A DNA stretch of 16,290 nucleotides from Candidatus Wukongarchaeum yapensis (GCA_016840425.1 JAEOSI010000025.1:1-16290), one strand, 5' to 3'; shown: positions 1-14,299, counted from the first letter of the stretch. A program made the numbers and translations. The notes: generated by a model from the sequence alone, not told the origin.

Positions 1-342
1 ACTTTTTGGAATAAATCCTTCCTCTGCCGCTATATTAGTAATCGCTTGAATAACATCTTCAGGCTTCGCGTTTTTTGCACACCTTTCTGAACACAAACCA
101 CAAGTAGCACAAAACCAAATCTTTTCATCTTTCAAAATCTCTTCCTTACCGCCTAATATCGCTTTTATAATGATTTTACGGGGATTAAAATCTTCATCAA
201 ATTTTCTAATTATACAACTCGCAGAACAAATACCACAACTCATACACTTAATAATCCCTATTCCTCCCGCCCTAGAAATAACTTCGTTAATAAAATCAAA
301 ATCTATGCGCTTTCCAGCAGCTGTATCTGAAGAAAAAGACAA
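1..342 (-). CDS. hdrC: Heterodisulfide reductase subunit C (2x[4Fe-4S]), 5' part; truncated at the window edge
   Basis: Manual translation (absent from the ORF track). TTG at 342, preceded by AGAAGGG, gives MSFSSDTAAGKRIDFDFINEVISRAGGIGIIKCMSCGICSASCIIRKFDEDFNPRKIIIKAILGGKEEILKDEKIWFCATCGLCSERCAKNAKPEDVIQAITNIAAEEGFIPKS... It has two ferredoxin-type Cys motifs plus the HdrC-typical FNPRKII and IWxCxTC segments. The frame is open up to 408, so an upstream TTG at 387 is an alternative start. Confidence 0.9.
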   Translation of the reverse strand, partial: MSFSSDTAAGKRIDFDFINEVISRAGGIGIIKCMSCGICSASCIIRKFDEDFNPRKIIIKAILGGKEEILKDEKIWFCATCGLCSERCAKNAKPEDVIQAITNIAAEEGFIPKS

Positions 343-446
343 AATATATTCCCTTCTAACTTCGCTTTTTCTTGTAAAAATAACCAAAAGTTCTAAAATA
401 TATGAGTTTTATCAATACTTTATTAAAAATAAAAATGGTTAATACC

Positions 447-467
447 TTTAAAAATTTATCCTTTTTC
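447..467 (-). promoter_or_regulatory. Possible BRE/TATA promoter for hdrC
   Basis: Minus strand GAAAAAGGATAAATTTTTAAA in the 194-nt AT-rich gap between gcvH and hdrC. AT-rich DNA yields such motifs easily. Confidence 0.3.
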
Positions 468-536
468 TATAAATTATAAAAATTAAAGCATAAAAGCATA
501 TTTTTTATAACTTAAAAATTAATAAAAAATCAAATT

Positions 537-977
537 TTAAAGATAACCTCTATCTTTATAATCTTGTATCTCATCCTGAATCCAGCTTCTAATAGCTTTT
601 CCCCCTTTGATAAGATCCGCTAAATCCTCTTCTAAATTAAAAGGTTCCACAACAAGAATCCAATGCTCATAACAAGACTCATTAATCAACCTAGGCTTTT
701 TCATAACTTCCTCATTAATTTCAACGATTCTCCCCGAAATAGGCGATTTCACAGGACCTACATATTTGCCCGATTCGATAGTACAAAAGGTTTTTCCCTT
801 CTTAATTTCCATACCGGCAGGATATGTATCAATATTTTGAATACGTCCCGTTAACTGCTGACCAAAGTCATCCAAGCCAAGAACTACTTTTTTAGGGTCT
901 AGAATTTTGACCCAGACATGATCAATCTGCTTGTAATAAAATTCCTCTGGCAAATCAAATATGTCAATTTTTACCAT
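537..977 (-). CDS. gcvH: Lipoyl-carrier protein, glycine cleavage H family (GcvH/LbpA-like)
   Basis: H-protein signatures: DHVWVK, LGLDDFGQQLTG, TIESGK71YVGPVKSPISGRIVEINE (lipoyl Lys71), PRLINESCY..W, plus a C-terminal helical extension. AGGTG RBS upstream of the ATG. Confidence 0.92.
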   Translation of the reverse strand: MVKIDIFDLPEEFYYKQIDHVWVKILDPKKVVLGLDDFGQQLTGRIQNIDTYPAGMEIKKGKTFCTIESGKYVGPVKSPISGRIVEINEEVMKKPRLINESCYEHWILVVEPFNLEEDLADLIKGGKAIRSWIQDEIQDYKDRGYL

Positions 978-1048
978 TGCATATCTACACCTTTTTTTAA
1001 AAATAATGAAAAGAAAGGATCAATAAATTTGTAACTATTGTAGGCAGA

Positions 1049-1297
1049 TTATGTTTTTCTTATAAAAACGTGCCAAAGTTCTATTTCGACGTCGACGATT
1101 TCGTATTCTAATTTTTTCAGTCGACAAAAGTTTGGTATGCTCTTTAAAACAGGATGACGCTCATCTGATATTACTTTAAGCACTTTGCCATCATCCATGG
1201 TTTTTAATGCTTTTTTTACTTCTAGCAAAGCATAAGGACAGTGAACTCCTCTAATAATCAGCTCTTTATCCGGTTTTTCATCCTTTAAACTTGCCAT
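1049..1297 (-). CDS. tusA: TusA/SirA-family sulfur carrier
   Basis: 82 aa. RGVHC20PYALLEVKKALKTM..GKVLKVISD and IPNFC58, matching the E. coli TusA CPEP...IPGFC layout. AGGTGGT RBS. Confidence 0.88.
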   Translation of the reverse strand: MASLKDEKPDKELIIRGVHCPYALLEVKKALKTMDDGKVLKVISDERHPVLKSIPNFCRLKKLEYEIVDVEIELWHVFIRKT

Positions 1298-1398
1298 AAA
1301 ACCACCTACTAAACATCCAAAAAAATGAAACCTTTTTTTGTTTATGATATACGATCTATTATTTTTTTAATAACGACGGATTTCTCCTTTATAAAAAA

Positions 1399-1686
1399 TT
1401 ATAGTTTTAGAATTTTAACTAACCACTCTTTCTCTCCCCGTTTAGTCACAACAAATTTCCACTTTTTTATTCGACACATATTAGGTATACTAGTTTCAGC
1501 CGTACTTTTGTTATCTGTCCTTAACTCTAAAATTTCTCCCACTTCAAGGGTCCTTAATGCTTTTTTTGTGTCGAGCAAAGCATAGGGGCAAACAAGTCCT
1601 TTCAAATCAAGGTGTTTTACTGGTTTACCGAAAAGTACGAAGGTTCCCTCTTCTTTTATTACCGAATCCGTCAATGGAAAACACAA
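1399..1686 (-). CDS. tusA: TusA/SirA-family sulfur carrier (second paralogue)
   Basis: LDLKGLVCPYALLDTKKALRTLEVGEILELRTDN...IPNMCR. The true start may be the TTG at 1674 rather than 1686. Confidence 0.9.
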   Translation of the reverse strand: MCFPLTDSVIKEEGTFVLFGKPVKHLDLKGLVCPYALLDTKKALRTLEVGEILELRTDNKSTAETSIPNMCRIKKWKFVVTKRGEKEWLVKILKL

Positions 1687-1725
1687 CCTTAAAAATCAAC
1701 GTTTTGAACTTTTATTTATTCTCAA

Positions 1726-1741
1726 ATATTAAACTTTTCTG
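1726..1741 (-). promoter_or_regulatory. Putative archaeal BRE-TATA promoter for the tusA-tusA-gcvH unit
   Basis: Minus strand CAGAAAAGTTTAATAT (purine-rich BRE followed by TTTAATA), about 40-50 nt upstream of the tusA start. Confidence 0.45.
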
Positions 1742-1802
1742 CGTTTTTATACCTCTTTCTGAACGGTTTTTACTTTTTTATATGGTGTACTCAAAACTCT
1801 AA

Positions 1803-2096
1803 TCAGGCAAAATTTACCACTTTATTTTCGACAATAAGGTCTATTAACTGCGGGTAATCTATCATTTCAACATCCTTGATTTTACCTTCCAACCCTCTTC
1901 TTCTAACATCTTCTTCTATCGCATATATTTTAACCCCTTTAACTTTTAATTCTCTCAAAGCATCTTCTTCTATCGTGTAATATACTCCATTCATTATGAG
2001 CACAATAGCGATGTTTTCATCCTTTTTTGCCTGCATTTTCGCTATTTCTAACCCATTTTCTCCATACGGCTTATTAATCAAATATAAAATCCCCAT
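1803..2096 (-). CDS. dsrH: DsrH/TusB sulfur-relay subunit
   Basis: ILYLINKP, VLIMNGVYY, IYAIEEDVRRRGL, IDYPQLIDLI: the DsrH/TusB pattern. Third gene of the E-F-H triad. Start is ATG 2096 or TTG 2102 (the latter overlaps the dsrF stop). Confidence 0.88.
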   Translation of the reverse strand: MGILYLINKPYGENGLEIAKMQAKKDENIAIVLIMNGVYYTIEEDALRELKVKGVKIYAIEEDVRRRGLEGKIKDVEMIDYPQLIDLIVENKVVNFA

Positions 2097-2098
2097 AG

Positions 2099-2473
2099 TC
2101 AAAAAGCTCCTACAGTAACATCAGCTTCACTTACAATACGAGCTATCTCTTCTCTACTTACAATTATCCACTTGTCCCCTACTTCATCTGCTTCTATTTT
2201 TCTCTCTTTTAACGACTCCTCTTCCACTAAAAGTTTTCCTGGAACTTCTAATCTGTTTAAAAAAGTATCTATGTATCTAAAAACTTCCTTTCTTTCCACG
2301 TTTTTCAAAACATTATAAACCCCCTCTCCTAAACATACAACGATAACCTCATGTTCATCTATGCCTGCTCCAAGCCCTACAGATGCTCGAAACCCTTCAG
2401 CATAATGAAGCGACCCTATAGGCGGCTTATTAAAAAAAACTACAACCTTCTTCGCTGGCATCTTGATCCACAT
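2099..2473 (-). CDS. dsrF: DsrF/TusC sulfur-relay subunit
   Basis: FFNKPPIGSLHYAEGFRASV, LGEGVYNVLK, LVEEESLKERKI: the DsrF/TusC pattern. Alternative start is ATG 2461. Confidence 0.88.
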   Translation of the reverse strand: MWIKMPAKKVVVFFNKPPIGSLHYAEGFRASVGLGAGIDEHEVIVVCLGEGVYNVLKNVERKEVFRYIDTFLNRLEVPGKLLVEEESLKERKIEADEVGDKWIIVSREEIARIVSEADVTVGAF

Positions 2474-2483
2474 TCCGCTATTT

Positions 2484-2843
2484 TTATCCCCAGAAGGTTA
2501 TTATTTTGTCTACAAGGCTAACTACATTTGCAAAATCCGCTAACCCCCCTACAGTAACCTCTTTTATATATCCTTTACCTTCCTCCAACCCCCTTAGATC
2601 AACACAAAGACCACAAGCTATAATTTCTGCCCCTTTTTCTATCAATCTTTTAAAGTCGTCTTTCGGCAATCTTTCCCATTCAGGAAATTCTTGCGCCTCC
2701 ATGGGCGAATATACTGCTTCATCATAGAGAAAAATTGTGACCTCATGTCCTTTATCAAGGGCAGCTTCTGTAATCTTTACCGCAGTATAATGGCTCTGAT
2801 TTTGAAACGGCGCTGCATTCAACATTATTCCTATTTTCACCAT
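2484..2843 (-). CDS. dsrE: DsrE/TusD sulfur-relay subunit (persulfide-forming)
   Basis: AAPFQ..SHYTAVKITEAALDKGHEVTIFLYDEAVY, AC77GLC80VDLRG, GGLADF. Cys77 sits at the position of the active Cys78 of TusD/DsrE. GAGGAG RBS at 2855-2860. Confidence 0.92.
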   Translation of the reverse strand: MVKIGIMLNAAPFQNQSHYTAVKITEAALDKGHEVTIFLYDEAVYSPMEAQEFPEWERLPKDDFKRLIEKGAEIIACGLCVDLRGLEEGKGYIKEVTVGGLADFANVVSLVDKIITFWG

Positions 2844-2865
2844 CTTTTTACAATCTCCTCTTTCT

Positions 2866-2880
2866 CATATAATTTTCTCG
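2866..2880 (-). promoter_or_regulatory. Possible BRE/TATA for dsrEFH in the divergent dsrE/ykgJ gap
   Basis: Minus strand CGAGAAAATTATATG, about 23 nt upstream of the dsrE ATG. Confidence 0.3.
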
Positions 2881-3032
2881 TTAATTCTTCACTAAACTTA
2901 AAACAATCAAAATATAAACATAACCCCATATAAAAACTAAATCAGGTTTATGCCTTTTTGAAACCTTACATATGTCAAAATCAGAGTTAACTTTTTTAAA
3001 GCAATAATAACCATGTTTAATCGGGGAGCTTG

Positions 3033-3502
3033 ATGAAACCCCGGCGTTTTAAATGTGAGCGTTGTGGAAAATGTTGTAAATTGCCCATATTTCTAACCCC
3101 TGAGGAAGCTTCGATCATAGGAGAATTTTTATTAAAAAATGATAAAATAAGATCCGTTGCCGCGAAAAATCTGAATACTACTGAAAAAAATCTTTTTTCT
3201 AAACTTTGGGGAGACCCAAAAATACCTGAAAAATTTGATTTTAAAATAAATAAACAGGCGAGTTTTGCCCGTTTTTAGGGGGTAAAAATCAACCCGTTAA
3301 AACTTGCCTTATTTATCTTGTTCGACCAGTTATTTGTATAAGTTATCCTGAAGATGGTCTATGTATTAACGGCATTAAAGGAACATCTTTCTGGAACGAA
3401 GAACCCAAAATTTATGACCAAATACGCCGCCATTTTTTTAATCTACTTGAAATGATTTTAAAAATTAAAAAGAAAAGAAAGCTTTTTACCTCTTCTTTCT
3501 AA
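3033..3502 (+). pseudogene. YkgJ-family (CxxCxxCC) Zn/Fe-chelating protein, split by a -1 frameshift at about 3252-3266
   Basis: Frame A (ATG 3033, GGGGAG RBS) encodes FKCERCGKCC and stops at TAG 3276-3278. The -1 frame is open from 3254 to TAA 3500-3502 and encodes TGEFCPFLGGKNQPVKTCLIYLVRPVICISYP..., the C-terminal motif of this family. The joined product is about 156 aa. Confidence 0.82.
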
Positions 3503-3541
3503 AGAAGAAAATCTTTTCAGTTGTCCTTTTCTATATTCTTT

Positions 3542-4291
3542 TTATTTTTTCATGAAGATAGCTATAGGCGCATTTGCTTTTTTCCATTTCGCCGCAACCC
3601 CCTTAAACCCTATTTTTAGCTCCTTTTTACCGTGATTGCCAACAATACAAAATATCGTTTTCGTTTTAACTTGATCATGGAAAAGTTTTATCCATGTGCT
3701 AGTTCTAGTTATAAGCTTTTTTAAAACTTCTTCAGGGGGTGCAAGCTTATATTCTTCATAAAGTTCATCAAAGTCTGAAAACTGTACCGAAATAAAATCA
3801 AACTTATTAAGGCGCTTTACTATTTCAGTATACGCTTCTGAGTCATTTTTTACATAAACTGCTTCTGCCCTCCCACAATAAGCATCTAGATCCCCCTTTC
3901 TTCCAATAGCTATCCCAGATAAACCCCTTGATCTCAAAAAATCGATCATGTTAAAGGCCCCTTCGGGTAACCCCCCGTGGAAAATATCATCAGTCATTAG
4001 TTTTGCATAAGGATTCTTTGTTTCAAAGAGGACAAAAACATCTAAAAGCTTAATAAGCTGTTTGCCTGCCCCCAAACCCCCAAAATACGTACACTCAAAA
4101 AGCCCCCAGTTATCAATTAAAATCAAAACAACTTGTTCACATTCAAAATATTTCTTAGGAAGTTTGATTTTTTTCAAGTTTAATGGTGGTTTTTCTCCCA
4201 ATATAGTGACTAATGTTGCAGGAATTTCTGTAGGACTCGCTTTTATGCTTGGAAATTCCTCCTCAACTTTTGAGCTCAATAAAAACACCAT
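3542..4291 (-). CDS. Alkaline-phosphatase/phosphodiesterase-superfamily fold protein with degenerate metal site
   Basis: VVLILIDNWG (first metal-ligand strand), FISVQFSDFDE, and IFCIVGNHG in place of the usual xTADHG. 249 aa. Confidence 0.6.
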   Translation of the reverse strand: MVFLLSSKVEEEFPSIKASPTEIPATLVTILGEKPPLNLKKIKLPKKYFECEQVVLILIDNWGLFECTYFGGLGAGKQLIKLLDVFVLFETKNPYAKLMTDDIFHGGLPEGAFNMIDFLRSRGLSGIAIGRKGDLDAYCGRAEAVYVKNDSEAYTEIVKRLNKFDFISVQFSDFDELYEEYKLAPPEEVLKKLITRTSTWIKLFHDQVKTKTIFCIVGNHGKKELKIGFKGVAAKWKKANAPIAIFMKK

Positions 4292-4561: not shown

Positions 4562-5620
4562 ATGAGCCTATCTGAAATCGTTACAGAACTAATATCTAAG
4601 GGGGAAGAGATCGCTGAAGAAGTTATAAAACAGATGAAAAAAGCCAAGGAAATAGTTCAAGAAATTAAAGGAAATGAACTACCATCCTCCAATAAAGACT
4701 TTTCTCTTAACGAATTAGAAGTTGGCGCTGTAGACGGGGGGATGGGTAAAGTAGAGTTAACCGCCACCACCATAATCCTAATAAAAAGTTTTGGGGGGAT
4801 TTTTAACCAAAATTCTACTCCTAAGTGGATAAAACGTGCCCACATTGAAGCTATAACATTATCAAGAAATATCGACAACTACGTCCGTCTTTTAAGGGAG
4901 ATTTTAGAGATAGAAACTGCTATAGAACTTGCCAAAAAAAACATAGATTACCTCCTTTTAGATGGCTCCCTTGCAACTTTAGCTGAAAGAGGAATACCTT
5001 GGGCTTTTTTAGCTCCACTTCAAAGAAAGGGCGAGATAGATTTAACTGAAAATAAAAAGAAGTTTATAATCCCTTATAAGAGATTTATTAAAAGTTTAGA
5101 CCGATTATTTAAAACGTGTGAATCAAGAAATACCCTTTTGATCGGCGTTTCTAAGGATTCCAGAGCAAAATACCTCAAAATAAATGATGAAATCCCTTCC
5201 TTCACCGATAGTGCTTTAGTGTCACTGGCCCTCAAAGATAAAACAGGTTTTATAGGTCCAATAAAAGTATCAATAAAAAGAGATCCTGGCATAACTGATC
5301 TTCTTAGAAATGAAAAAGTTCTTTTGAATCGCGACAAATTCTTCACCTTTTACGTGAAATTAAAACCCCACGCTAAACCCTTCAGATTCGACTTATTGCC
5401 TAATTCTGAACAACGAGCTGAAGATGCCCTGAAGCTCTTTCTTGCCCTTGAAGATGGACACGGATTCATACTTCCCCCTCACTTTGTCCATAATCAAGCG
5501 ACAGTTTCACAAGAAGAAATTTCCCTCGTAACAGAAAATATTAAACACCAAATCCTTGCAAAAGCTCCAATAGCATATAACTTATTGTTAAGCCCCCGAA
5601 GGAGAGATTTTTTTGGATAA
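4562..5620 (+). CDS. nurA: NurA 5'-3' nuclease
   Basis: VGAVDGG, LLLDGSL, LIGVSKDS, C-terminal HNQA. First gene of the operon and overlaps the herA start. Confidence 0.92.
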   Translation: MSLSEIVTELISKGEEIAEEVIKQMKKAKEIVQEIKGNELPSSNKDFSLNELEVGAVDGGMGKVELTATTIILIKSFGGIFNQNSTPKWIKRAHIEAITLSRNIDNYVRLLREILEIETAIELAKKNIDYLLLDGSLATLAERGIPWAFLAPLQRKGEIDLTENKKKFIIPYKRFIKSLDRLFKTCESRNTLLIGVSKDSRAKYLKINDEIPSFTDSALVSLALKDKTGFIGPIKVSIKRDPGITDLLRNEKVLLNRDKFFTFYVKLKPHAKPFRFDLLPNSEQRAEDALKLFLALEDGHGFILPPHFVHNQATVSQEEISLVTENIKHQILAKAPIAYNLLLSPRRRDFFG

Positions 5621-7220
5621 AGAAAACCATTTAGAAAAAGTGGGTGTAATAGTCGGCACTACAACGGTGGCAAAAATACTCATTAACGTTGACCGGAGTG
5701 CTATCCGACATAACCCCCTTCAACGAGGAGAATTCATCCTCTTACAATATCCTACAATCAAACAATCTGTTTTAGCCGTTATAACCGAATTAGGTCTATC
5801 AAACCTCCTAATCCCAGAAACATTAGTAAGAGACCCGCAAGACATGGAAAAAATAAAGCTCATTGGCGGTTTGGAAGAAGGAGAACAAATATTTGCTGAA
5901 GCAAAAATCATTGGTTACATGGGCGACAGTGGAAAAATAATCGCTCCTAGACATCCTCCTGTCCCAGGATCCTACGTCTATAAAGCATCAAAAGAAGTTC
6001 TTGAACCGCTTTTCACCCAAGATAACGGGATAAAAATTGGCACTCTTCTCGCTCATTCCGAAGTACCCGTATCCACAGACTTAGGCGAAATTGTGCGCCG
6101 GCATTTAGCAATTCTCGCGATCACTGGCGGAGGCAAAGGGAACACAGTTGCGATCCTTGCAAAAGGCATCCTATCTCTCGGTGGGTCTATGATCATTATT
6201 GACCCCCATGAAGAATATCCGCAAACTAGGAATGTTTTTGGTGATGAAAAAGTTTTAGTGTTTGCTTCTGAAGCTGATTCAATAAAGCGATACCGCCCTA
6301 TACGGTTTAAAATATCAAACCTTGATGCAGAAGAATTAGCAAGCTTATTTGAACTCCCTAGAGGCGCAACTAAACAATACTCTATCCTTAAAAGCGCAGT
6401 TAAAACCCTAAAAACTGCGGGAGGGAACTGGGATTTCAACGATCTAAAAAATGCGATAATTGAAATACAAGAAGGAAAAAAAGAGTTTTCAACATCTGCT
6501 GAAGGTCTCCTCGCTCGAATGGATAAAATAACAGATACTCTCATCTTCGACCCAGAAATTGAAACCCCCCTACATGATCCTGACAACCCTTGCCTTGTAA
6601 GACCTAACCAATTAACAATCGTTAATGTTTCAAGCTTATCCCTAGGAACCCAACAGTTAATCGTTCAACGCTTACTTAAAAGAATCTTTAGAGGAGGTAT
6701 CGCGTGGCGTAGAAGTTTTCTAGGGGAAAAAATCCCTGCCCCAGTTTTAATTGTAGTGGAAGAAGCACACAATTTTGCTCCAGCAAAAGGTGATGCTTAC
6801 TCCCTTTCGACTTTAAAGAAAATAGCGGCAGAAGGTAGAAAATTTGGTGTAGGATTGTGTATAGTAAGTCAAAGGCCTGGTAAAGTTCATCCTGATATTC
6901 TAAGCCAGTGTAACTCTATGATCATCCTGAAAATCGTTAATCCCTTCGATCAACAGAACCTTGAACAAAGCGCTGAAGCCCTAAGTAAAGACCTTTTTGA
7001 AAACTTGCCTGGTCTCAACGTTGGCGAAGCCGTTGTTATAGGCCCTGCAATTAAAATCCCAGCTGTTATTAAAATAGATAAGTTTGAAGGCAAACTTGGC
7101 GGGGATGACATCGACATTATTAACATGTGGAAAAAAGCTAACAAAGAAGAAGAAAAAAATCAAAGCAAAAAAACCGAAATCCCAAACTTTATGGCCGATG
7201 ATTCCGAACTTTTTGGTTAA
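5613..7220 (+). CDS. herA: HerA bipolar DNA helicase/translocase
   Basis: N-terminal HAS-barrel-like region, RHLAILAITGGGKGNT (Walker A), VVEEAHNFAP (Walker B), GRKFG arginine finger, SQRP. TTG start with AGGAGA RBS inside the nurA 3' end. Confidence 0.95.
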   Translation: MDKENHLEKVGVIVGTTTVAKILINVDRSAIRHNPLQRGEFILLQYPTIKQSVLAVITELGLSNLLIPETLVRDPQDMEKIKLIGGLEEGEQIFAEAKIIGYMGDSGKIIAPRHPPVPGSYVYKASKEVLEPLFTQDNGIKIGTLLAHSEVPVSTDLGEIVRRHLAILAITGGGKGNTVAILAKGILSLGGSMIIIDPHEEYPQTRNVFGDEKVLVFASEADSIKRYRPIRFKISNLDAEELASLFELPRGATKQYSILKSAVKTLKTAGGNWDFNDLKNAIIEIQEGKKEFSTSAEGLLARMDKITDTLIFDPEIETPLHDPDNPCLVRPNQLTIVNVSSLSLGTQQLIVQRLLKRIFRGGIAWRRSFLGEKIPAPVLIVVEEAHNFAPAKGDAYSLSTLKKIAAEGRKFGVGLCIVSQRPGKVHPDILSQCNSMIILKIVNPFDQQNLEQSAEALSKDLFENLPGLNVGEAVVIGPAIKIPAVIKIDKFEGKLGGDDIDIINMWKKANKEEEKNQSKKTEIPNFMADDSELFG

Positions 7221-7264
7221 AACGCCCTTACTTAATATCAAGTACCTGTTAAAGGTGTCATAGC

Positions 7265-8575
7265 GTGAACCCTATAAAATTTGCTCACATTAGTGATTTT
7301 CACCTTGGGTATTGTCAATACGGGCTCGCCAAAAGGTTTACTGATATCGGAAATGCTGCTCGCATAAGCATAGAAAAAGCTTTAGAAAGAAATGTGGATT
7401 TTATCCTCTTTACTGGAGATCTTTTTCACTGTCACTCTCCCTCATCAGGCACTTTAAGGCAAGCAATCAAAATTTTAGAAATGCCAAAAAAAGCTAGCAT
7501 TCCCTTTTACGTTATTCGTGGAAATCATGATGCTTCCTATGCAAGAAGCGAGAGATACGGCGGAGATGTCCTTGATTTCTTATCCGACTTAAGATACCTC
7601 CAGTATATAAAAGACTCTTATATCGACCATGATCCTTTGAGAATCTGGGGTGTAGGTTACTATGGTATACGGGCTAAAAAAAGGTTGTTAGAAGTACTTG
7701 AAAACCGAAAAAAAGAAGACGGAGAAGAACGGCTAGAAATTTTAGCCTTACACGCCCTAATCGAAGGACAGATGCCTTTTCATGAAATCGATCTTTACAC
7801 TTTGGCAAATCTGTCATTTAATTACATCGCCTTAGGTCACTACCACAATCGGTGGGAGTTGGCAAAACATAACTTATACTGTCCTGGAGCAACAGAACAC
7901 ATGGATACTCGGGAATGGAAATCCTCCCGAGGTTTTTACTTTGTTGAAGTTAAAAATTCAAAATTTAACACGGAGTTTATTGAAATTCCTGTAAGATTAA
8001 AAAAAGATATTAAAGTAGATCTTGGAACCGTGGATTTAAATGAAGCCCAAAGAAAAATGGAAGCGATAATCAAAGAAAATGATATAAAGGATGCAATGCT
8101 TCGATTCGAATTTACCGGACACTTAGCTCAAGGAAAGAAAGAACAGATATCTACCGCTCAACTCCTAAGTTTAGTTAGGCAAGCTTTCTACGTTGTAGAG
8201 ATTCGAAATTCATTAGAAAGCAAAACTATGCCAATAAAAGCAGCAGATCCTCAAGAGGCAATAAAAAAACTTCTATTAAAACTCCTTGGAAAAAAGAATG
8301 AAGAAGAAATCTTACCTGAAAGCGAATTAGTACAAGTTCTTTTAAGAGTTCTTGGTGAAGAAGGAGACATTGAATCTTCTTTAAAAATCATCGATGATTT
8401 CTTCCAAAAAAAGGAAAACATTAAACTTAAAGTTCAGCAAATCCCTGAAAAAGTTGAAATTTCAAAGGCTTTTAAGGAAAAAGAAGCTTTAAAGTCCCGC
8501 CCGTCTGAAAAAAACACTAACATTACTAAAAAATCAGCTAAAAAAAGAGTTCTTAACGACTTCTTCACCGATTAA
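7265..8575 (+). CDS. mre11: Mre11 DNA double-strand-break nuclease
   Basis: Phosphoesterase motifs SDFHLG, GDLF, GNHD, ALGHYH, YCPGATE. GTG start with AAGGTG RBS. Confidence 0.95.
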   Translation: MNPIKFAHISDFHLGYCQYGLAKRFTDIGNAARISIEKALERNVDFILFTGDLFHCHSPSSGTLRQAIKILEMPKKASIPFYVIRGNHDASYARSERYGGDVLDFLSDLRYLQYIKDSYIDHDPLRIWGVGYYGIRAKKRLLEVLENRKKEDGEERLEILALHALIEGQMPFHEIDLYTLANLSFNYIALGHYHNRWELAKHNLYCPGATEHMDTREWKSSRGFYFVEVKNSKFNTEFIEIPVRLKKDIKVDLGTVDLNEAQRKMEAIIKENDIKDAMLRFEFTGHLAQGKKEQISTAQLLSLVRQAFYVVEIRNSLESKTMPIKAADPQEAIKKLLLKLLGKKNEEEILPESELVQVLLRVLGEEGDIESSLKIIDDFFQKKENIKLKVQQIPEKVEISKAFKEKEALKSRPSEKNTNITKKSAKKRVLNDFFTD

Positions 8576-8590
8576 AAAGGGGGATAGAAA

Positions 8591-10768
8591 ATGGCTATAA
8601 AAAACATAAAACTTGTTGATTTTAAATCCTATGCCGAACAACAAGTAGAACTGCCTATGGGCAGAATAATGATTCTAGGGCAAAACGGGGCAGGGAAAAC
8701 TACCTTGTTACAAGCAATACATTTCGGGCTTTTCGGTAAAAGTGATAGAAAAAATATAGAACTTATAAGACAGGGAGCAAAAAAAGCTACTGTCGAAGTA
8801 TCTTTCAGTACTCAAAAAGGAGATTATACTATTGAAAGATCTCTTATAATAGAAAGAAATAATGTAAAGCATGAAGCCCTAATGAAGGATGATTTAGGGA
8901 ACATTATCGCAAATAATCCTATTTCTGTGCTTACCGAAGTGGAAAAAATACTTTCTACTACAGAAAACATTTTCAGGAACGCTGTTTATGTGGGACAAGG
9001 CGAGATCGCGCAAATAGCTTTCCAGGCGCCTAGTGAGCGAAAAAAACTTTTAGATCGCCTATTAGGTCTCCAAATTTATGAGAATGCTTGGGAAAAGACC
9101 AGAGAGATAATGAAAGCTATTGGAAATAGGATTAACAAATTGGAAGATGAAATCAAAACGCTAAAAGAAGAAGCTAGCAAAAAGACCATCGTCCAAGAAA
9201 AATTACAAAAAGAAAAGACTGAAGTTAAAAAGAGTAAGGAAACTCTCCAAAACTTAAAAAAAACTCTTAAACACCTAAATAAAGACTATGAGGAGAAAAA
9301 AAAGATTAAAGATGAACTTATAAAAGTAAGAACGGAAAGAGAAAAGATTGAAGAATCTCTAAAAAACTTAAATAGCGAAGAAAAAAGCCTTAAATCCACG
9401 TTAGAAAAAGATTTGGGAGAAAAATGGGCAGAAAAAATAATGAAATTAGAGGAGATAAAGGAAAAAATAAACGATCTTGAAAAACAACTTGAAATCATTG
9501 AAAACGATTTAAATCTTAAAATAGAAAAAATGGAAAATGAAAAACAAAAATCTGTTAAATCTTTACAAGAAGAAACTAAAAGAACTTTACAAGAAGTAAG
9601 AGAAAAAAAAGATTTACTTGAACGTAAAATCGGCGAACTCACAGGAAATTTAAAACCTTTAAAAGACCAAATAAAATCCTTTTCATCCCTAAAAGAAGAA
9701 ACTATTTGTCCCACATGTCGACAAAAACTAACCCCTCAACATGTCGAAAAGATCCTTTTGGAAAGTGAGAGAAAATTTTCAGAAATAAAAGCTGAAAAAG
9801 ACAATCTTGAAAACAGTATTCTTAAACTGAAAGAAAAAGAGTCTATGGTATCCAAAAATTTGGAAGAATCCGTATCTAAAATAGAGGCAGAATTCAAAGA
9901 AAAAAAGGAAAACTTGCACAAAAATTTCAAAGAAGACAAGCAAAAATTGTCAGAAGATCTAAAAAATATGAGAAATCTTTACCAACGACTTGAAAAGGGA
10001 AGGATTTTCCAGCAACGATTAGAAAACGTTTTAAAAGATTTAAAATCGCAAGGAGATCTATTTAAATCGGTAGATGCCCGGTTCCAAGAGCTAAATAGCT
10101 CTTTCGCCACTGCCACTTTTAAACATCTTGAAGATGAAGTAAAAAAGCAAGAAAACCAAAAAGCTAAACTCGAAACCAGAATTGATCTCTCTGAAAACAA
10201 GTTAATACCAGAATTCGAAAACCAGCTTGAAACTATTAATAAAAAGGAGCAAGAACTAAGAGAAAAAGAAGAAAAACTTTCTGTAGAAAAAGAAAAGTTG
10301 CAATTAACAGATATCTTGCGCAACCTTTTCAGAGATATCCAACCAGTAATAAGGGACGCCTTAGTTGAAAGTATAAGCGAAGAAGCAACAAAAACATTCA
10401 AAGAGCTAATAAATAATCCAGAATTTGACCAATTAAAATTAACATCCGAATACGATATTCAATGTTATCGACACGGTAATCCTACAGACATTCGTCTTCT
10501 CAGTGGCGGTGAACAAATAATCGCTTGTCTAGCTTTAAGATTAGGAATAGCAGAAGTTATCGGTCGACAAGACCTCTTGATATTAGATGAACCAACAGTA
10601 CATCTAGACCAAGAGCACAGAACAGAACTTGTAGAAGTCTTATCTTACCTAAAATCAATGCCCCAATTAATAGTCGTTACTCACGACTCCACATTCGCAA
10701 ATGCGGCGGAATATATCCTAACGGTAGAAAAAACAGGAAATGGATCATCAATACATATAGAGTCTTAA
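8591..10768 (+). CDS. rad50: Rad50 SMC-like ATPase
   Basis: GQNGAGKTT (Walker A), YVGQGEI (Q-loop), coiled coils, CPTC zinc hook (Cys373, nt 9707-9718), LSGGEQ signature, LILDEPTVHLD, VTHD. Confidence 0.96.
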   Translation: MAIKNIKLVDFKSYAEQQVELPMGRIMILGQNGAGKTTLLQAIHFGLFGKSDRKNIELIRQGAKKATVEVSFSTQKGDYTIERSLIIERNNVKHEALMKDDLGNIIANNPISVLTEVEKILSTTENIFRNAVYVGQGEIAQIAFQAPSERKKLLDRLLGLQIYENAWEKTREIMKAIGNRINKLEDEIKTLKEEASKKTIVQEKLQKEKTEVKKSKETLQNLKKTLKHLNKDYEEKKKIKDELIKVRTEREKIEESLKNLNSEEKSLKSTLEKDLGEKWAEKIMKLEEIKEKINDLEKQLEIIENDLNLKIEKMENEKQKSVKSLQEETKRTLQEVREKKDLLERKIGELTGNLKPLKDQIKSFSSLKEETICPTCRQKLTPQHVEKILLESERKFSEIKAEKDNLENSILKLKEKESMVSKNLEESVSKIEAEFKEKKENLHKNFKEDKQKLSEDLKNMRNLYQRLEKGRIFQQRLENVLKDLKSQGDLFKSVDARFQELNSSFATATFKHLEDEVKKQENQKAKLETRIDLSENKLIPEFENQLETINKKEQELREKEEKLSVEKEKLQLTDILRNLFRDIQPVIRDALVESISEEATKTFKELINNPEFDQLKLTSEYDIQCYRHGNPTDIRLLSGGEQIIACLALRLGIAEVIGRQDLLILDEPTVHLDQEHRTELVEVLSYLKSMPQLIVVTHDSTFANAAEYILTVEKTGNGSSIHIES

Positions 10769-10776
10769 TATTGCAA

Positions 10777-11184
10777 TTATAATTCTCCAAAAATTAAGAC
10801 GTTAACAGTTCTTGTTCTTGGGGGATCGAAATCTGTTAAAAAAATGTGTTCCCACGTACCTAAAGCCAATTTCTTATCAAATAATGGGATAACTCTGCTG
10901 TTTCCGACTATTACAGCTTTAATATGGCTATGAGCATTATTATCAATTCTATCATGTTTATATCCCGCTGACCTTGGCACTATTTTCGCAAGCGTCTCTC
11001 TTATATCCTCAACAAGACCTTTTTCATTCTCATTAATAATCACAGAAGCTGTAGTATGTGGTGTATACACAACAGCTAGCCCATTTTTAGCCCCTGATTT
11101 TGAAACTATCTCCCCCACATTTCGTGTAATATCTAATATTTCCTCTTTTGTTGTTTTCACATGAAAACTCTCTAAATAGAACAT
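10777..11184 (-). CDS. yjbQ: YjbQ/UPF0047 protein (secondary thiamine-phosphate synthase family)
   Basis: YTPHTTASVIINEN, NAHSHIKA, LALGTWEHIFLTDFD. Confidence 0.92.
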   Translation of the reverse strand: MFYLESFHVKTTKEEILDITRNVGEIVSKSGAKNGLAVVYTPHTTASVIINENEKGLVEDIRETLAKIVPRSAGYKHDRIDNNAHSHIKAVIVGNSRVIPLFDKKLALGTWEHIFLTDFDPPRTRTVNVLIFGEL

Positions 11185-11197
11185 TTAAATCCCCTTT

Positions 11198-11899
11198 TTA
11201 TTCACCTAGGAATAAGCGCTTGGCTAAAAACTCTGGAAGATCTTTCTCAATTATTGCCCTTGCCGCAGCCTGAATATCGTAATCAACCCGCGCTATCTCG
11301 ATTTTAACTTTGTGCTCTTCTTCTATGTCGATTAAAGCAAAACTTGCCCTAGGGTCAAAATCCCTCGGTTGCCCAACCGCGCCAGGATTTAAAATAATCC
11401 CATGTTCACACTCCCATACATAGGGTATATGTGTATGTCCTATAAGTATAAAATCTGATTCCATCTGTGCAAGATATAGTTCGAGACGCCTTGGAGGATG
11501 TACACTAGGAAAAATATACTCATCAGGGTCAAGGGGTGAACCATGAGCTACTGTAAAATTTATGCCTCCAATCTCTACTTCTACCCTGACATAGGGTAAT
11601 GATTCCAACCACTCCAACGATTCTTTTGTAAGGACTTTTTCAGTCCATAAAAGTGATTCCATGGCTATAGGATTAAAACCATAATAATCTGATGTTATTA
11701 TCGCACGATCGTGATTTCCTTGACACGCTTCCACAGTAATATTTTCAATCATCTCAATACATTCATTAGGGTATGCTCCGTATCCCACAATATCTCCACA
11801 ACATAATACTGCATCCACTTTCGCCTTTCTCATCTCCGTTAAAACAGCACAAAGAGCATGAAGATTGGAATGGATATCACTTATAACCGCTATCCTCAA
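11198..11899 (-). CDS. Calcineurin-like metallophosphoesterase
   Basis: SDIHSN, CGDIVGYG, GNHD, HGSP, GHTH, NPGAVGQPRD. TTG start with AGGTGG RBS. Only 13 nt separate it from yjbQ. Confidence 0.92.
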   Translation of the reverse strand: MRIAVISDIHSNLHALCAVLTEMRKAKVDAVLCCGDIVGYGAYPNECIEMIENITVEACQGNHDRAIITSDYYGFNPIAMESLLWTEKVLTKESLEWLESLPYVRVEVEIGGINFTVAHGSPLDPDEYIFPSVHPPRRLELYLAQMESDFILIGHTHIPYVWECEHGIILNPGAVGQPRDFDPRASFALIDIEEEHKVKIEIARVDYDIQAAARAIIEKDLPEFLAKRLFLGE

Positions 11900-11973
11900 A
11901 ATAAGTCTTCCACCTTTTAGCCACTTGATGATTATGCTTAAAAATTTACAACCTAAATTTTATATTCACTTAA

Positions 11974-12120
11974 TTAAACCTTTGTAAAAACCTTCCTCAT
12001 TTCTAAATCAAGTGCTTCATCTTTCAAAAAAATACCCGTTGTATCGGAATGTTTTTCCATCATTCTTCTAAATATTTCGAAATCACTTAGTTTCCCTGAA
12101 ATTCTTTTTAAATTGTTCAA
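11974..12120 (-). CDS. Possible small protein (48 aa), unknown function
   Basis: Manual translation from TTG: MNNLKRISGKLSDFEIFRRMMEKHSDTTGIFLKDEALDLEMRKVFTKV. Composition is charged and protein-like, but there is no clear RBS. Confidence 0.35.
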   Translation of the reverse strand: MNNLKRISGKLSDFEIFRRMMEKHSDTTGIFLKDEALDLEMRKVFTKV

Positions 12121-12177
12121 ACCAATATGTTTTATAAATCAGGTTAACAGAGTTTTATCGCTATTTGGAGATTTTAC

Positions 12178-12249
12178 ATGAAAGTAATTAAAGGTAAAAA
12201 GGTTTGTTCACTAGTAACAGTTCCGGGGGCTAAAAATCAGAAGATTTGA
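12178..12249 (+). CDS. Possible 23-aa small ORF upstream of thrS
   Basis: GGAG at 12167-12170, 7 nt before ATG. Encodes MKVIKGKKVCSLVTVPGAKNQKI, ending in TGA. Confidence 0.25.
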   Translation: MKVIKGKKVCSLVTVPGAKNQKI

Positions 12250-12379
12250 AAAGGATAATATAGACCACGAAAAACTATAATAAACCTAAAACCTAAACAA
12301 GTTTTGCAAAAAACTTAGCAAACTCGTATAAATGTTAATCAGTTCTCTCCAAATATTATGTTTGATGGAGGCTTATTGC

Positions 12380-14299
12380 TTGAAAATATTGCTTATTCAT
12401 GCGGATTTCTTTGAATTTGAGCCAAAAAAACGCGCTATAAAAGCTTCAGAAACCGTGGAAAAAACCGTCAAAAAATTTGACGATTGCTTGGTAGCCTTTT
12501 CTGCAGTAGAACAAGAAGATGAAATAAACATTGAAAAAATTGCTGAAAAAACAGCTATGGAAATCAAAAATGTAGCAGAACAATTAAAAGAAAAAACTAT
12601 CATAATTTACCCTTTTGTCCACTTAACTGAGAATCCCTCAAGACCCGATACGGCATTAAATGTGCTTCGGGAAACCGAAAAAATACTTCAAAACCTGGGA
12701 TTAACAGTATATAGGGCCCCCTTTGGTTGGTATAAAGCTTTCAATATCGCCTGTAAAGGTCATCCTCTCTCAGAATTAAGTCGGCATATAATCTCTGAGG
12801 AAGTGGAAAAAGAAGCTGCTTCCTCAGAAAGCATGGATATTACTGACGTTATCACAAAGGAAGAGGATGTTACTGCCCTTAAAGCAGAGGAAGAAACAAA
12901 ATCCACCTTCTATATTCTTACCCCCCAAGGCGTCCTTATACCAGCAGAAGAATACGATTTCAATGGCTATGAAAATCTTCAAAAGTTAGCTCTATATGAA
13001 ATGGCTAAAAAACGAGTTTCAGAAACTCCTCCCCCCCACACCTATCTAATGCGAAAGTTAGAGTTAGTCGATTATGCTCCTGGAAGTGATGCTGGAAACC
13101 TAAGATGGTTGCCAAAAGGATTCATCGTCAAAAACCTTCTCGAAACCTTCGTTGCAGAAAAATCTTATGAATACGGCGCTCTCCCTGTAGAGACTCCTGA
13201 AATGTATGACTACCAACATCCAGCCCTTGAAAGCTATTTAAAAAGATTCCCAGCAAGGCAATACGTCGTTAGAAGCGGCACAAAAAGGTATTTCCTCCGT
13301 TTTTCTGCATGTTTTGGGCAATTTTTGATAAAACATGATTCAACAATCAGCTATAAGAACCTCCCATTAAAAATGTTTGAGTTAACCAGATATGCCTTCA
13401 GACGTGAACAGAGGGGAGAACTTGCAGGTTTAAGACGCTTAAGAGCGTTCACAATGCCCGATATGCATACGATATGTAAAGATATAAATGAAGCTAAAAA
13501 AGTGTTTACTGAACAGTTTAATCTTTCAAGGGAAATAATGCAGGCTATAGAAGTTGATCCTGAACTCGAAGTAGCGTTTAGAGTAGCTGAAGATTTCTGG
13601 GAAGAACACAAAGAATGGATAATAGACATGATAAAACAAACAGGAAAACCAGCACTAATTGAGATGTTTAAAAAAAGATACGCTTACTTTATAACAAAAA
13701 TGGAGTTCAACTTCGTAGATTCACAAAACAAAGCAGCAGCCCTTGCAACAGTCCAAATAGACGTAGAAAACGCTCAACGCTTCGACATAACCTTTATTGA
13801 TCGAGCTGGAAAAGAAAAAACCCCCTTAATCCTCCACTGTTCTATAAGTGGAGCCATTGAAAGATGTCTTTATGCCATGTTAGAAAAAGCATATATGGAA
13901 CAACAAAAAGGAAATGTTCCTGAACTACCTTTGTGGGTATCCCCCATCCAAGTCCGAATTATTCCCGTAAGCGAACGATTCAGCGAAAAATGTATGGAAC
14001 TCTCAAACAAATTAAACAACCTCTTTATCCGCACCGATTTAGACGATAGAGAACTAACCGTAGGAAAAAAGATAAGAGACGCGGAAGTAAACTGGATACC
14101 CCTAATAGTGGTTATAGGTGGGAAAGAAGTGGAAAACAACATTCTTTCTGTAAGAATCCGAAAAGAAAGAAAAGAGCTAAAAATGACTTTAGACCAATTA
14201 ATAGAATTCGTAGAAAAATCTAGAAAAAACAAACCCAAAATATTTCTCCCATACCCAAAAGAGGTATCCAAACAACCCATATGGATACCTATGACCTAA
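12380..14299 (+). CDS. thrS: Threonyl-tRNA synthetase, archaeal type with N-terminal editing domain
   Basis: MKILLIHADFFEF...YPFVHL...APFGWYKAFNIACKGHPLSELSR (archaeal editing domain); RFSACFG, FRREQRGELAGLRRLRAFTMPDMH, HCSISGAIER; C-terminal anticodon-binding domain. TTG 12380 with GGAGG RBS is preferred over ATG 12332. Confidence 0.97.
   Translation: MKILLIHADFFEFEPKKRAIKASETVEKTVKKFDDCLVAFSAVEQEDEINIEKIAEKTAMEIKNVAEQLKEKTIIIYPFVHLTENPSRPDTALNVLRETEKILQNLGLTVYRAPFGWYKAFNIACKGHPLSELSRHIISEEVEKEAASSESMDITDVITKEEDVTALKAEEETKSTFYILTPQGVLIPAEEYDFNGYENLQKLALYEMAKKRVSETPPPHTYLMRKLELVDYAPGSDAGNLRWLPKGFIVKNLLETFVAEKSYEYGALPVETPEMYDYQHPALESYLKRFPARQYVVRSGTKRYFLRFSACFGQFLIKHDSTISYKNLPLKMFELTRYAFRREQRGELAGLRRLRAFTMPDMHTICKDINEAKKVFTEQFNLSREIMQAIEVDPELEVAFRVAEDFWEEHKEWIIDMIKQTGKPALIEMFKKRYAYFITKMEFNFVDSQNKAAALATVQIDVENAQRFDITFIDRAGKEKTPLILHCSISGAIERCLYAMLEKAYMEQQKGNVPELPLWVSPIQVRIIPVSERFSEKCMELSNKLNNLFIRTDLDDRELTVGKKIRDAEVNWIPLIVVIGGKEVENNILSVRIRKERKELKMTLDQLIEFVEKSRKNKPKIFLPYPKEVSKQPIWIPMT

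Follow-up and report, generated by a model that had tools for sequence, protein, structure and literature searches.

A predicted DsrEFH-TusA sulfur relay, an LbpA-like lipoyl carrier and a canonical HdrABC encoded in one gene cluster of the Asgard archaeon Candidatus Wukongarchaeum yapensis

Introduction

Heterodisulfide reductase (Hdr)-type enzymes of the sHdr kind are encoded with a defined core synteny, which is shdrC1B1AHC2B2 in type I and shdrC1B1AHB3-etfAB-emo in type II (PMC11094781). In the Ehe cluster of Culexarchaeia, gcvH lies beside hdrA2B2C2, and its product has been proposed to be the carrier of the disulfide (PMC9723716). For the Asgard archaeon Nerearchaeum, a model exists in which Mvh-Hdr reduces persulfides on TusA and DsrE (bioRxiv 10.1101/2025.07.22.663070). 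The genes for HdrABC rank among the most strongly expressed ones of energy metabolism in Asgard archaea, and the substrate of the enzyme there is still termed an 'unidentified heterodisulfide' (PMC11291895). Here we describe a cluster of nine genes, dsrE-dsrF-dsrH-tusA-tusA-lbpA(like)-hdrC-hdrB-hdrA, which begins on a contig of Candidatus Wukongarchaeum yapensis (GCA_016840425.1, JAEOSI010000025.1:1-16290; this whole stretch of 16,290 bases is called the window) and continues on a second contig. We propose, tentatively, that its products form a module for the reduction of sulfane sulfur, in which a lipoyl carrier would be the partner of HdrB.

The locus resembles the sHdr-LbpA systems in that an Hdr-type enzyme lies beside a dedicated lipoate carrier of the same clade (motif E-S-G-K-W/Y), TusA and DsrE-family transferases, with a separate canonical GcvH encoded in the genome. 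It differs from them in its full-length, four-domain HdrA of 787 residues with a fused MvhD-like domain, whereas sHdrA has about 350 residues and holds flavin adenine dinucleotide (FAD) and one cluster; in its single hdrC-hdrB pair without sHdrH, a second C2B2 unit or B3, which departs from the core synteny; in its heteromeric DsrE/F/H triad in place of homo-oligomeric DsrE3; and in having no lipoate-maturation genes in the cluster. The host, moreover, is an anaerobic Asgard archaeon and not a sulfur oxidizer. With the methanogen HdrABC(-MvhAGD) and Methanosarcina HdrA2B2C2 enzymes (5odc; NF041778, NF040770) the locus shares the alignment of HdrA, the ten cysteines of HdrB and the two [4Fe-4S] motifs of HdrC, and with Methanosarcina HdrA2 also the fusion of an MvhD-like domain to HdrA. 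Unlike the methanogen systems, it has an MvhD-like domain without cluster cysteines, its subunits score below the equivalog cut-offs, the cluster also encodes a lipoyl carrier and a sulfur relay, and neither McrA nor ComA was found in the genome. The system works like a cross of the sHdr-LbpA-sulfurtransferase pathway and methanogen HdrABC, and is a member of neither.

As in the Ehe cluster, the host is a non-methanogenic archaeon and a gcvH-family gene adjoins an HdrABC of the bifurcating type; the Ehe cluster, however, is without DsrEFH and TusA, is associated with SdhA, CdhA and a membrane [NiFe] hydrogenase, and has no phylogeny that puts its GcvH with LbpA. The YTD arrangement (DsrEFH type II, yeeE-tusA-dsrEFH; PMC13293266) and the Nerearchaeum model have in common with our locus that TusA stands beside DsrE/F/H and that the triad occurs with Hdr in Asgard archaea, where one family adds yeeE and a [NiFe] hydrogenase. 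In contrast to both, no yeeE was found here, a lipoyl carrier is encoded between relay and Hdr, and tusA is present in two copies; the two papers make no mention of a lipoyl protein (PMC13293266; bioRxiv 10.1101/2025.07.22.663070). Finally, the locus agrees with DsrEFH-DsrC of the reverse Dsr pathway and with TusBCD-TusE-MnmA in the E-F-H order, the active-site cysteine of DsrE and TusA as the likely donor, and differs from them in that the genome yielded no DsrC/TusE, DsrAB or MnmA and DsrH has no cysteine.

A preliminary description of the window, made from its sequence, had put this arrangement forward as a candidate for an undescribed system. For the three-part operon DsrEFH-TusA-LbpA-like-HdrCBA this agrees with our full-text literature search, which found no description, although its coverage is incomplete and does not prove novelty. 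The pairwise links, on the other hand, have each been proposed in print, namely GcvH with HdrA2B2C2 (PMC9723716) and TusA/DsrE with Mvh-Hdr (bioRxiv 10.1101/2025.07.22.663070), and what we have found no account of is their combination. The same incomplete search returned no description of LbpA-type carriers as general neighbors of canonical Hdr in Asgard archaea and Bathyarchaeia, nor of an HdrA subclass with a cysteine-less MvhD domain.

Results

A nine-gene cluster on two contigs

The window is a complete contig (C191) of an assembly of 2.16 Mb (277 contigs, 38% GC, estimated 92% complete), and hdrC is thus cut by the contig end. The seven co-oriented genes that the preliminary description had placed at 1-2843 all lie on the minus strand, running from 2843 to 1 in the order dsrE, dsrF, dsrH, tusA, tusA, gcvH-like and hdrC, and each scores above its Pfam threshold. 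The features of the cluster are as follows.

2484..2843, minus strand: DsrE-like sulfurtransferase subunit, 119 residues; PF02635, 66 bits; motif C77-G-L-C80-x3-R84-G85
2099..2473, minus strand: DsrF-like subunit, 124 residues (120 in the gene calls of relatives); PF02635, 38 bits; weak TusC/DsrF NCBIfam match
1803..2102, minus strand: DsrH/TusB-like subunit, at most 99 residues; PF04077, 49 bits; TIGR03011, 53.3 bits against a cut-off of 49.2
1399..1686, minus strand: TusA copy 1, 95 residues from the first TTG (91-94 in relatives); PF01206, 59 bits; Cys33 in CPYA
1049..1297, minus strand: TusA copy 2, 82 residues; PF01206, 55 bits; Cys20 in CPYA
537..977, minus strand: LbpA-like lipoyl carrier (GcvH paralogue), 146 residues; PF01597, 97.5 bits; putative lipoyl Lys71 in TIESGKYVGP
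1..387, minus strand: HdrC, N-terminal 129 codons; two CX2CX2CX3C [4Fe-4S] motifs, C48/51/54/58 and C93/96/99/103; best NCBIfam matches QmoC and HdrC
Contig C220 (L011), 1-327, 349-1290 and 1327-3690: rest of hdrC, hdrB and hdrA, respectively

The last of these lines bears out the expectation that hdrB and hdrA would be found to the left of position 1. The start of C220 is the exact reverse complement of the first 144 bases of the window, a stretch that is unique within the assembly, in which overlapping contig ends are frequent. C220 supplies the end of hdrC, followed by hdrB (313 residues, two complete CCG motifs) and hdrA (787 residues). The same nine-gene order is found, at 75-100% amino-acid identity and on unbroken contigs, in four other assemblies: L015 (GCA_030587675.2), L016/L017, L056 (Candidatus Hodarchaeota archaeon DZ1B.339) and L191. 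In addition, an 8.6-kb contig from an independent marine-sediment metagenome spans window position 1. The join of C191 and C220 is confirmed by these unbroken contigs and by the sediment contig, and the gene order is thereby seen in five assemblies. Both copies of tusA are retained in all four collinear relatives. We place the end of the cluster after hdrA, because two small open reading frames (ORFs) on the opposite strand come next in the relatives. A reading of the truncated first gene as qmoC (78 bits against a cut-off of 300) was dropped, since C220 shows a soluble HdrC of 174-189 residues and then hdrB.

Some junctions within the cluster are tight: dsrE and dsrF are 10 bases apart, dsrF and dsrH overlap by 4 bases, and hdrC-hdrB and hdrB-hdrA are separated by 21 and 36 bases. 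The genes dsrH, tusA, tusA, lbpA and hdrC are set apart by about 70-190 AT-rich bases, some with runs of six T. One metatranscriptome run (X20) yielded three short contigs of 95-99% identity, covering hdrC, dsrE/dsrF and the gene of a 249-residue protein upstream, which is too little to judge co-transcription or expression. The GTDB class of the source organism holds three species only, and near-identical DNA occurs in metagenomes of marine, mangrove and marsh sediments.

The lipoyl carrier

Lys71 of the carrier aligns with the lipoyl lysine of the pea H-protein (1dxm_A). Against the GcvH equivalog TIGR00527, with its cut-off of 115.85, the carrier scores 66.5 bits, whereas a paralogue on contig C238 scores 152.6 bits and is by this measure the canonical GcvH of the genome. 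The paralogues on C125 and C112/C177 likewise fall below the cut-off. C112 (1-993) and C177 (1-990) are 96.6% identical over 990 bases in reverse orientation, in a region where gcvH-like and hdrA genes diverge, and they are probably two strains of one locus that were binned together; a count of four LbpA-like paralogues was for this reason revised to three distinct loci as the safer number.

When 185,579 species genomes were scanned for the motif T[IVL]ESGK[WY][VL]G, two groups were returned: proteins of Bathyarchaeia and Asgard archaea at 41-51% identity, and LbpAs of sHdr clusters at 35-44% identity (Acidithiobacillus, Ectothiorhodospira, Aquificaceae, Ferrimicrobium and many metagenome-assembled genomes). 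In a maximum-likelihood tree of 87 sequences, the archaeal carriers and the sHdr LbpAs are united with 98% support in the SH-like approximate likelihood-ratio test (SH-aLRT), and the carrier falls inside a mainly archaeal subclade (90%) and outside the canonical GcvH of the genome; this tree was computed from 144 columns in a quick search and is rooted on only one certain GcvH. On these comparisons we assign the carrier to the LbpA-like proteins and not to the H-proteins of glycine cleavage, and the separation from true GcvH that the preliminary description had allowed for is found both in the scores and in the tree.

The lipoate machinery looked for in the genome is present. LipA exceeds its cut-off of 310 with a score of 386 bits, and two ligases of the LplA type are encoded elsewhere, one on C244 and one as a split pair on C258; therefore, lipoylation of the carrier appears feasible. 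The glycine cleavage genes are there in part: in addition to gcvH on C238, contig C264 (L044) carries at 627-1782 a gcvT that is split over two overlapping ORFs of 133 and 260 residues, out of frame with each other owing to either a frameshift or an assembly error, beside a gene for an Lpd-like flavoprotein, whereas GcvP was not found in this genome. With GcvT and an Lpd-like gene at hand, and given its membership of PF01597, the carrier might be imagined as a spare H-protein of glycine cleavage, with Hdr using another small-molecule disulfide. We give this idea very little credence, as the carrier does not reach the equivalog cut-off for GcvH, C238 encodes a canonical GcvH, GcvP is missing from the search results, and the neighborhood with CCG-domain proteins recurs across two archaeal phyla.

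The type of Hdr

Residues 4-655 of HdrA align end to end with HdrA of Methanothermococcus thermolithotrophicus (5odc_A; 597 bits), whereas the sHdrA of a sulfur oxidizer (6tjr_A) matches residues 324-566 only (126 bits). HdrB is nearest to methanogen HdrB (193 bits) and keeps the ten cysteines of the CCG motifs (C13, C45, C46, C100, C103 and C176, C216, C217, C252, C255). Because there are one hdrC, one hdrB and a full-length HdrA, and no sHdrH, C2B2 or B3 unit in the cluster, the enzyme is not an sHdr by the published definition (PMC11094781). The sequences instead point to a canonical HdrABC with a four-domain HdrA that, as in HdrA2, carries a fused MvhD/FlpD-like domain, and the earlier framing of the system as a hybrid of sHdr is not apt. 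All three subunits remain under the NCBIfam equivalog cut-offs (HdrA 800 versus 1400, HdrB 234 versus 345).

The fused MvhD-like domain (L011 3283-3690) has lost its cluster ligands and contains one cysteine only. Where the MvhD of C112 and the HdrA paralogue of C145 read C-N-W-C, M-C-S-G-R and G-C-x3-D-C, the HdrA of the cluster reads K-E-E-L, V-P-S-I-A-R and L-C-E-G-P-K-S. The cysteine-less domain is found in every HdrA of about 790-800 residues that we observed beside an LbpA-like gene, in Asgard archaea as well as in Bathyarchaeia (L167, L170, L212, L072, L220), and each copy of this HdrA subclass that we encountered has an LbpA-like gene as its neighbor. Without cysteine ligands, the domain cannot bind the [2Fe-2S] cluster through which MvhD takes in electrons from the hydrogenase; three or four [NiFe] hydrogenases are encoded in the genome. 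Searches of this genome, estimated to be 92% complete, found neither McrA nor ComA, and CoM-S-S-CoB, the heterodisulfide of coenzymes M and B, is therefore an unlikely substrate.

The type of the enzyme also bears on the direction of the reaction. In an oxidative, sHdr-like scheme, sulfur delivered by TusA/DsrEFH to the lipoyl carrier would be oxidized towards sulfite by Hdr, and the electrons would pass to ferredoxin, NAD+ or protons. The nearest characterized relatives of the carrier are indeed the LbpAs of sulfur-oxidizing sHdr systems, which always occur with TusA and DsrE-type transferases (PMC6067878, PMC11094781), and DsrEFH types I and II are taken as markers of sulfur oxidation (PMC13293266). 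Even so, we regard oxidation as improbable: this Hdr is without the make-up that defines sHdr, the organism comes from anoxic sediments, and a search of the genome for siroheme sulfite reductase found none, sulfite-handling genes and terminal oxidases not having been searched for. In related Asgard clusters, furthermore, the relay is accompanied by hdrCB and a [NiFe] hydrogenase of the uptake type, a combination more in keeping with reduction (bioRxiv 10.1101/2025.07.22.663070).

Conservation of the carrier-Hdr link

The neighborhood of an LbpA-like gene and Hdr recurs well beyond this cluster. A second LbpA-like locus of the same genome (C112) is arranged head-to-head with hdrA-mvhD-hdrC-hdrB. 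In 11 of 20 other Asgard genomes, from at least seven families, a gene for a CCG-domain protein is found no more than 8 kb from the best LbpA-like gene; for loci centered on DsrE, the figure is 3 of 20. The layouts in these Asgard archaea include hdrCBA with an HdrA of about 800 residues, a GlcD-type flavoprotein with an HdrD-like protein, and the row hdrA-mvhD-[NiFe] hydrogenase-hdrC-hdrB-gcvH. On 49 metagenome contigs of at least 5 kb, lplA stands beside the carrier gene in 31 and an HdrB-type gene in 19, and rows of hdrA-mvhD-hdrC-hdrB-[NiFe] hydrogenase-gcvH-lplA are among them. Bathyarchaeia show GlcD-HdrD-carrier-LplA loci and carrier-hdrCBA loci. Thus, the link between carrier and Hdr is a deep, conserved one, and comparative genomics gives good support to the earlier suggestion that a lipoylated carrier may be the partner of Hdr.

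A recurrent set of genes in Bathyarchaeia and Asgard archaea (L019/L020, from JGI 3300009034, and L175, L177, L178, L182, L184) encodes a GlcD-type FAD oxidase, an HdrD-like protein with Fer4 and CCG domains and an LbpA-like GcvH, in many cases with LplA as well. L072 encodes the first two of these as a single fusion protein of 916 residues.

The sulfur relay

Cys77 of DsrE aligns with the active Cys78 of DsrE from Allochromatium vinosum (2hy5_A). Within the motif C-x2-C-x3-R-G, C77, R84 and G85 are invariant among 12 Asgard DsrE homologues, and C80 is nearly so. DsrH contains no cysteine at all. The cysteine of the CPYA motif is intact in both copies of TusA, which share 31 identical residues over a local alignment of 74 columns. 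The claim that the relevant cysteine and lysine residues are preserved is thus correct for DsrE, for both TusAs and for Lys71 of the carrier, and the three-subunit E-F-H order together with the active cysteine of DsrE identifies the set as a relay of the DsrEFH/TusBCD type.

The canonical partners of such relays were not found. DsrC/TusE (PF04358) was detected in none of 101 Asgard genomes and not in this one, and the genome likewise yielded no DsrAB or other siroheme sulfite reductase of the NIR_SIR type (PF01077) and no true MnmA (PF03054), for which the sole match was a 20-bit P-loop fragment. The absence of dsrC/tusE and mnmA noted earlier for the window therefore extends to the genome as searched.

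In the window tusA adjoins dsrEFH, and homologous triads of other Asgard archaea stand in the order tusA-yeeE-dsrEFH. A DsrE homologue was found in 140 of 301 Asgard genomes; the DsrE/F/H triads are mostly accompanied by TusA, and their other neighbors vary (AsnC regulators, DsrE2-like genes, TPR or LRR proteins). In 20 other Asgard genomes, dsrEFH lies elsewhere than the carrier-Hdr genes. In three genomes of another Asgard family (L033 8554-15560, L031 and L032), tusA-yeeE-dsrE-dsrF-dsrH neighbors hdrC-hdrB and the genes for the small and large subunits of a [NiFe] hydrogenase; the two groups are collinear in one genome and arranged head-to-head in the others. The locus looks like a cluster for hydrogen-driven reduction of thiosulfate or sulfane sulfur, and the association of DsrEFH with Hdr arose independently in that family. 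In a third Asgard family (L040, G007, 9618-12973), dsrH-dsrE-dsrF stands beside a gcvH with a canonical-looking ESVKA motif and genes for DGC-domain and thioredoxin-domain proteins.

Alternatively, two modules might be merely adjacent. In that case lbpA-hdrCBA would be a redox unit of lipoyl protein and Hdr, shuttling electrons, for example, between ferredoxin or H2 and NAD+ via the Lpd-like enzyme encoded on C264, and DsrEFH-TusA would be a general biosynthetic relay for thio-cofactors, tRNA or Fe-S clusters that by chance precedes it in this genus. The wide occurrence of DsrEFH-TusA with unrelated neighbors, the LbpA-like-Hdr units of other lineages that come without any relay, the confinement of the fusion to one genus, the AT- and T-rich spacers and the presence of the Lpd-like gene all speak for it. 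Against it, the nine-gene order is kept in relatives down to 75% identity, TusE and MnmA, the canonical acceptors of a biosynthetic TusBCD relay, were not found, neighborhoods of DsrEFH with Hdr arose independently in a second Asgard family, and DsrH-E-F stands beside a GcvH-type gene in a third. Weighing the two sides, we judge mere adjacency to be unlikely, but by a distance that leaves it a serious contender.

A third tusA (CPVP motif) is found on contig C66 (L054, 246-2171), together with a gene for a DsrE2-like protein (DrsE_2) and a class-V aminotransferase of the cysteine desulfurase type; this set is a possible source of persulfide. Together with the closeness of the relay to a lipoyl protein and an Fe-S-rich enzyme, it could also be taken to mean that TusA/DsrEFH are a sulfur source for the synthesis or repair of the lipoyl group or of the unusual non-cubane Fe-S clusters in HdrB. 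Most LbpA-like-Hdr loci, however, are without a relay, the lipoyl sulfurs come from the auxiliary cluster of LipA itself, and we know of no precedent for a sulfur relay that serves the biogenesis of either. A biogenesis role is, in our view, highly improbable.

Neighboring genes

Upstream of dsrE and co-oriented with it, a conserved protein of 249 residues is encoded at 3542..4291 (minus strand); in L016 its gene ends 38 bp before dsrE. It has no Pfam or NCBIfam match. Language-model matches (Phosphodiest/Sulfatase clusters) provide a lead, and only a lead, to the alkaline-phosphatase/sulfatase superfamily. Its membership in the cluster is possible but uncertain. The spacer of about 700 bases between this gene and dsrE contains an ORF of 82 residues at 3030-3278 (plus strand), with a weak, sub-threshold match to a CxxCxxCC domain (PF03692). 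Further along the window, a complete archaeal NurA-HerA-Mre11-Rad50 operon for DNA-end resection occupies 4562-10768 on the plus strand, and downstream of it are encoded a UPF0047 protein, a metallophosphoesterase, a threonyl-tRNA synthetase with an archaeal editing domain (12332-14299) and a V4R-domain protein. The resection operon and the synthetase are among the evidence that the organism is an Asgard archaeon.

Discussion

We propose that the cluster encodes a cytoplasmic module for the reduction of sulfane sulfur, built around HdrABC, in which the carrier is the partner of HdrB and the relay feeds in sulfane sulfur that leaves as sulfide. This is the reading we favor, though we would put its chances at somewhat below even. 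The lipoyl group is taken as the dithiol/disulfide partner of HdrB because a CCG domain, at which Hdr enzymes reduce disulfides, is common to all carrier neighborhoods. In the proposed mechanism, the carrier would be lipoylated on Lys71 by the LplA/LipA machinery of the genome. Electrons would pass from the flavin of HdrA via HdrC to HdrB, and at the two non-cubane clusters of HdrB the lipoyl disulfide would be reduced, in the role that CoM-S-S-CoB plays in methanogens. DsrEFH and both TusA proteins would carry persulfide on the TusA cysteine and on Cys77 of DsrE, and may pass its sulfur to the dihydrolipoyl arm; this sulfur could stem from the tusA-dsrE2-like-cysteine desulfurase set of C66 or from an imported sulfur compound. 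The arm would then free the sulfur as H2S, revert to the disulfide and be reduced again by HdrCBA. In this way, a fermenting Asgard archaeon that cycles H2 could dispose of electrons on sulfane sulfur. A chemical parallel, cited in PMC6067878, is the rhodanese-catalyzed reduction of the sulfane sulfur of thiosulfate by dihydrolipoate, which in such chemistry acts as both acceptor and reductant.

Several points weigh against this proposal. It is in this genus only that DsrEFH-TusA adjoins the carrier-Hdr module, so that the synteny anticipated for relatives exists as the nine-gene order of four assemblies and goes no further; the only further genome of its order included in the search has the parts in separate places. 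The step from relay to carrier draws on this genus and on analogy, and the scheme as a whole on genes and sequence comparison. The spacers within the cluster, read by themselves, make several transcripts possible. No YeeE-type importer was found in this genome, and no electron donor to HdrA was identified. A real weakness is energetic: the lipoyl couple, at about -290 mV, is less suited than CoM-S-S-CoB to be the high-potential acceptor in bifurcation. Lastly, Cys65 and Cys102 of the carrier are not conserved beyond the genus, and the cysteine pair of bacterial LbpAs thus appears not to be conserved in it; two cysteines, N- and C-terminal, are conserved in most bacterial LbpAs, and some archaeal LbpAs are without them (PMC6067878).

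A broader claim can be formulated, which we consider unlikely as it stands, yet worth stating. Across Asgard archaea and Bathyarchaeia, a lipoylated protein of the LbpA type may be the counterpart of CoM-S-S-CoB for canonical HdrABC, that is, the 'unidentified heterodisulfide', and may be served by the HdrA subclass whose MvhD domain holds no cluster. In the genus of the window, it would be wired to a DsrC-independent TusA/DsrEFH relay that makes protein-bound sulfane sulfur an electron sink.

The window and the recurrent carrier-Hdr neighborhoods name a concrete, testable candidate for the partner of Hdr in these archaea, namely a dedicated lipoyl protein akin to the LbpA of sulfur oxidizers, and the DsrEFH relay encoded here must operate without DsrC/TusE. 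If the proposal is true, lipoate, sulfur trafficking and electron bifurcation would be linked in Asgard archaea, with a bearing on hydrogen-sulfur syntrophy models of the origin of eukaryotes. It would also suggest a lipoyl-dependent ancestry common to sHdr-LbpA systems and methanogen-type Hdr.

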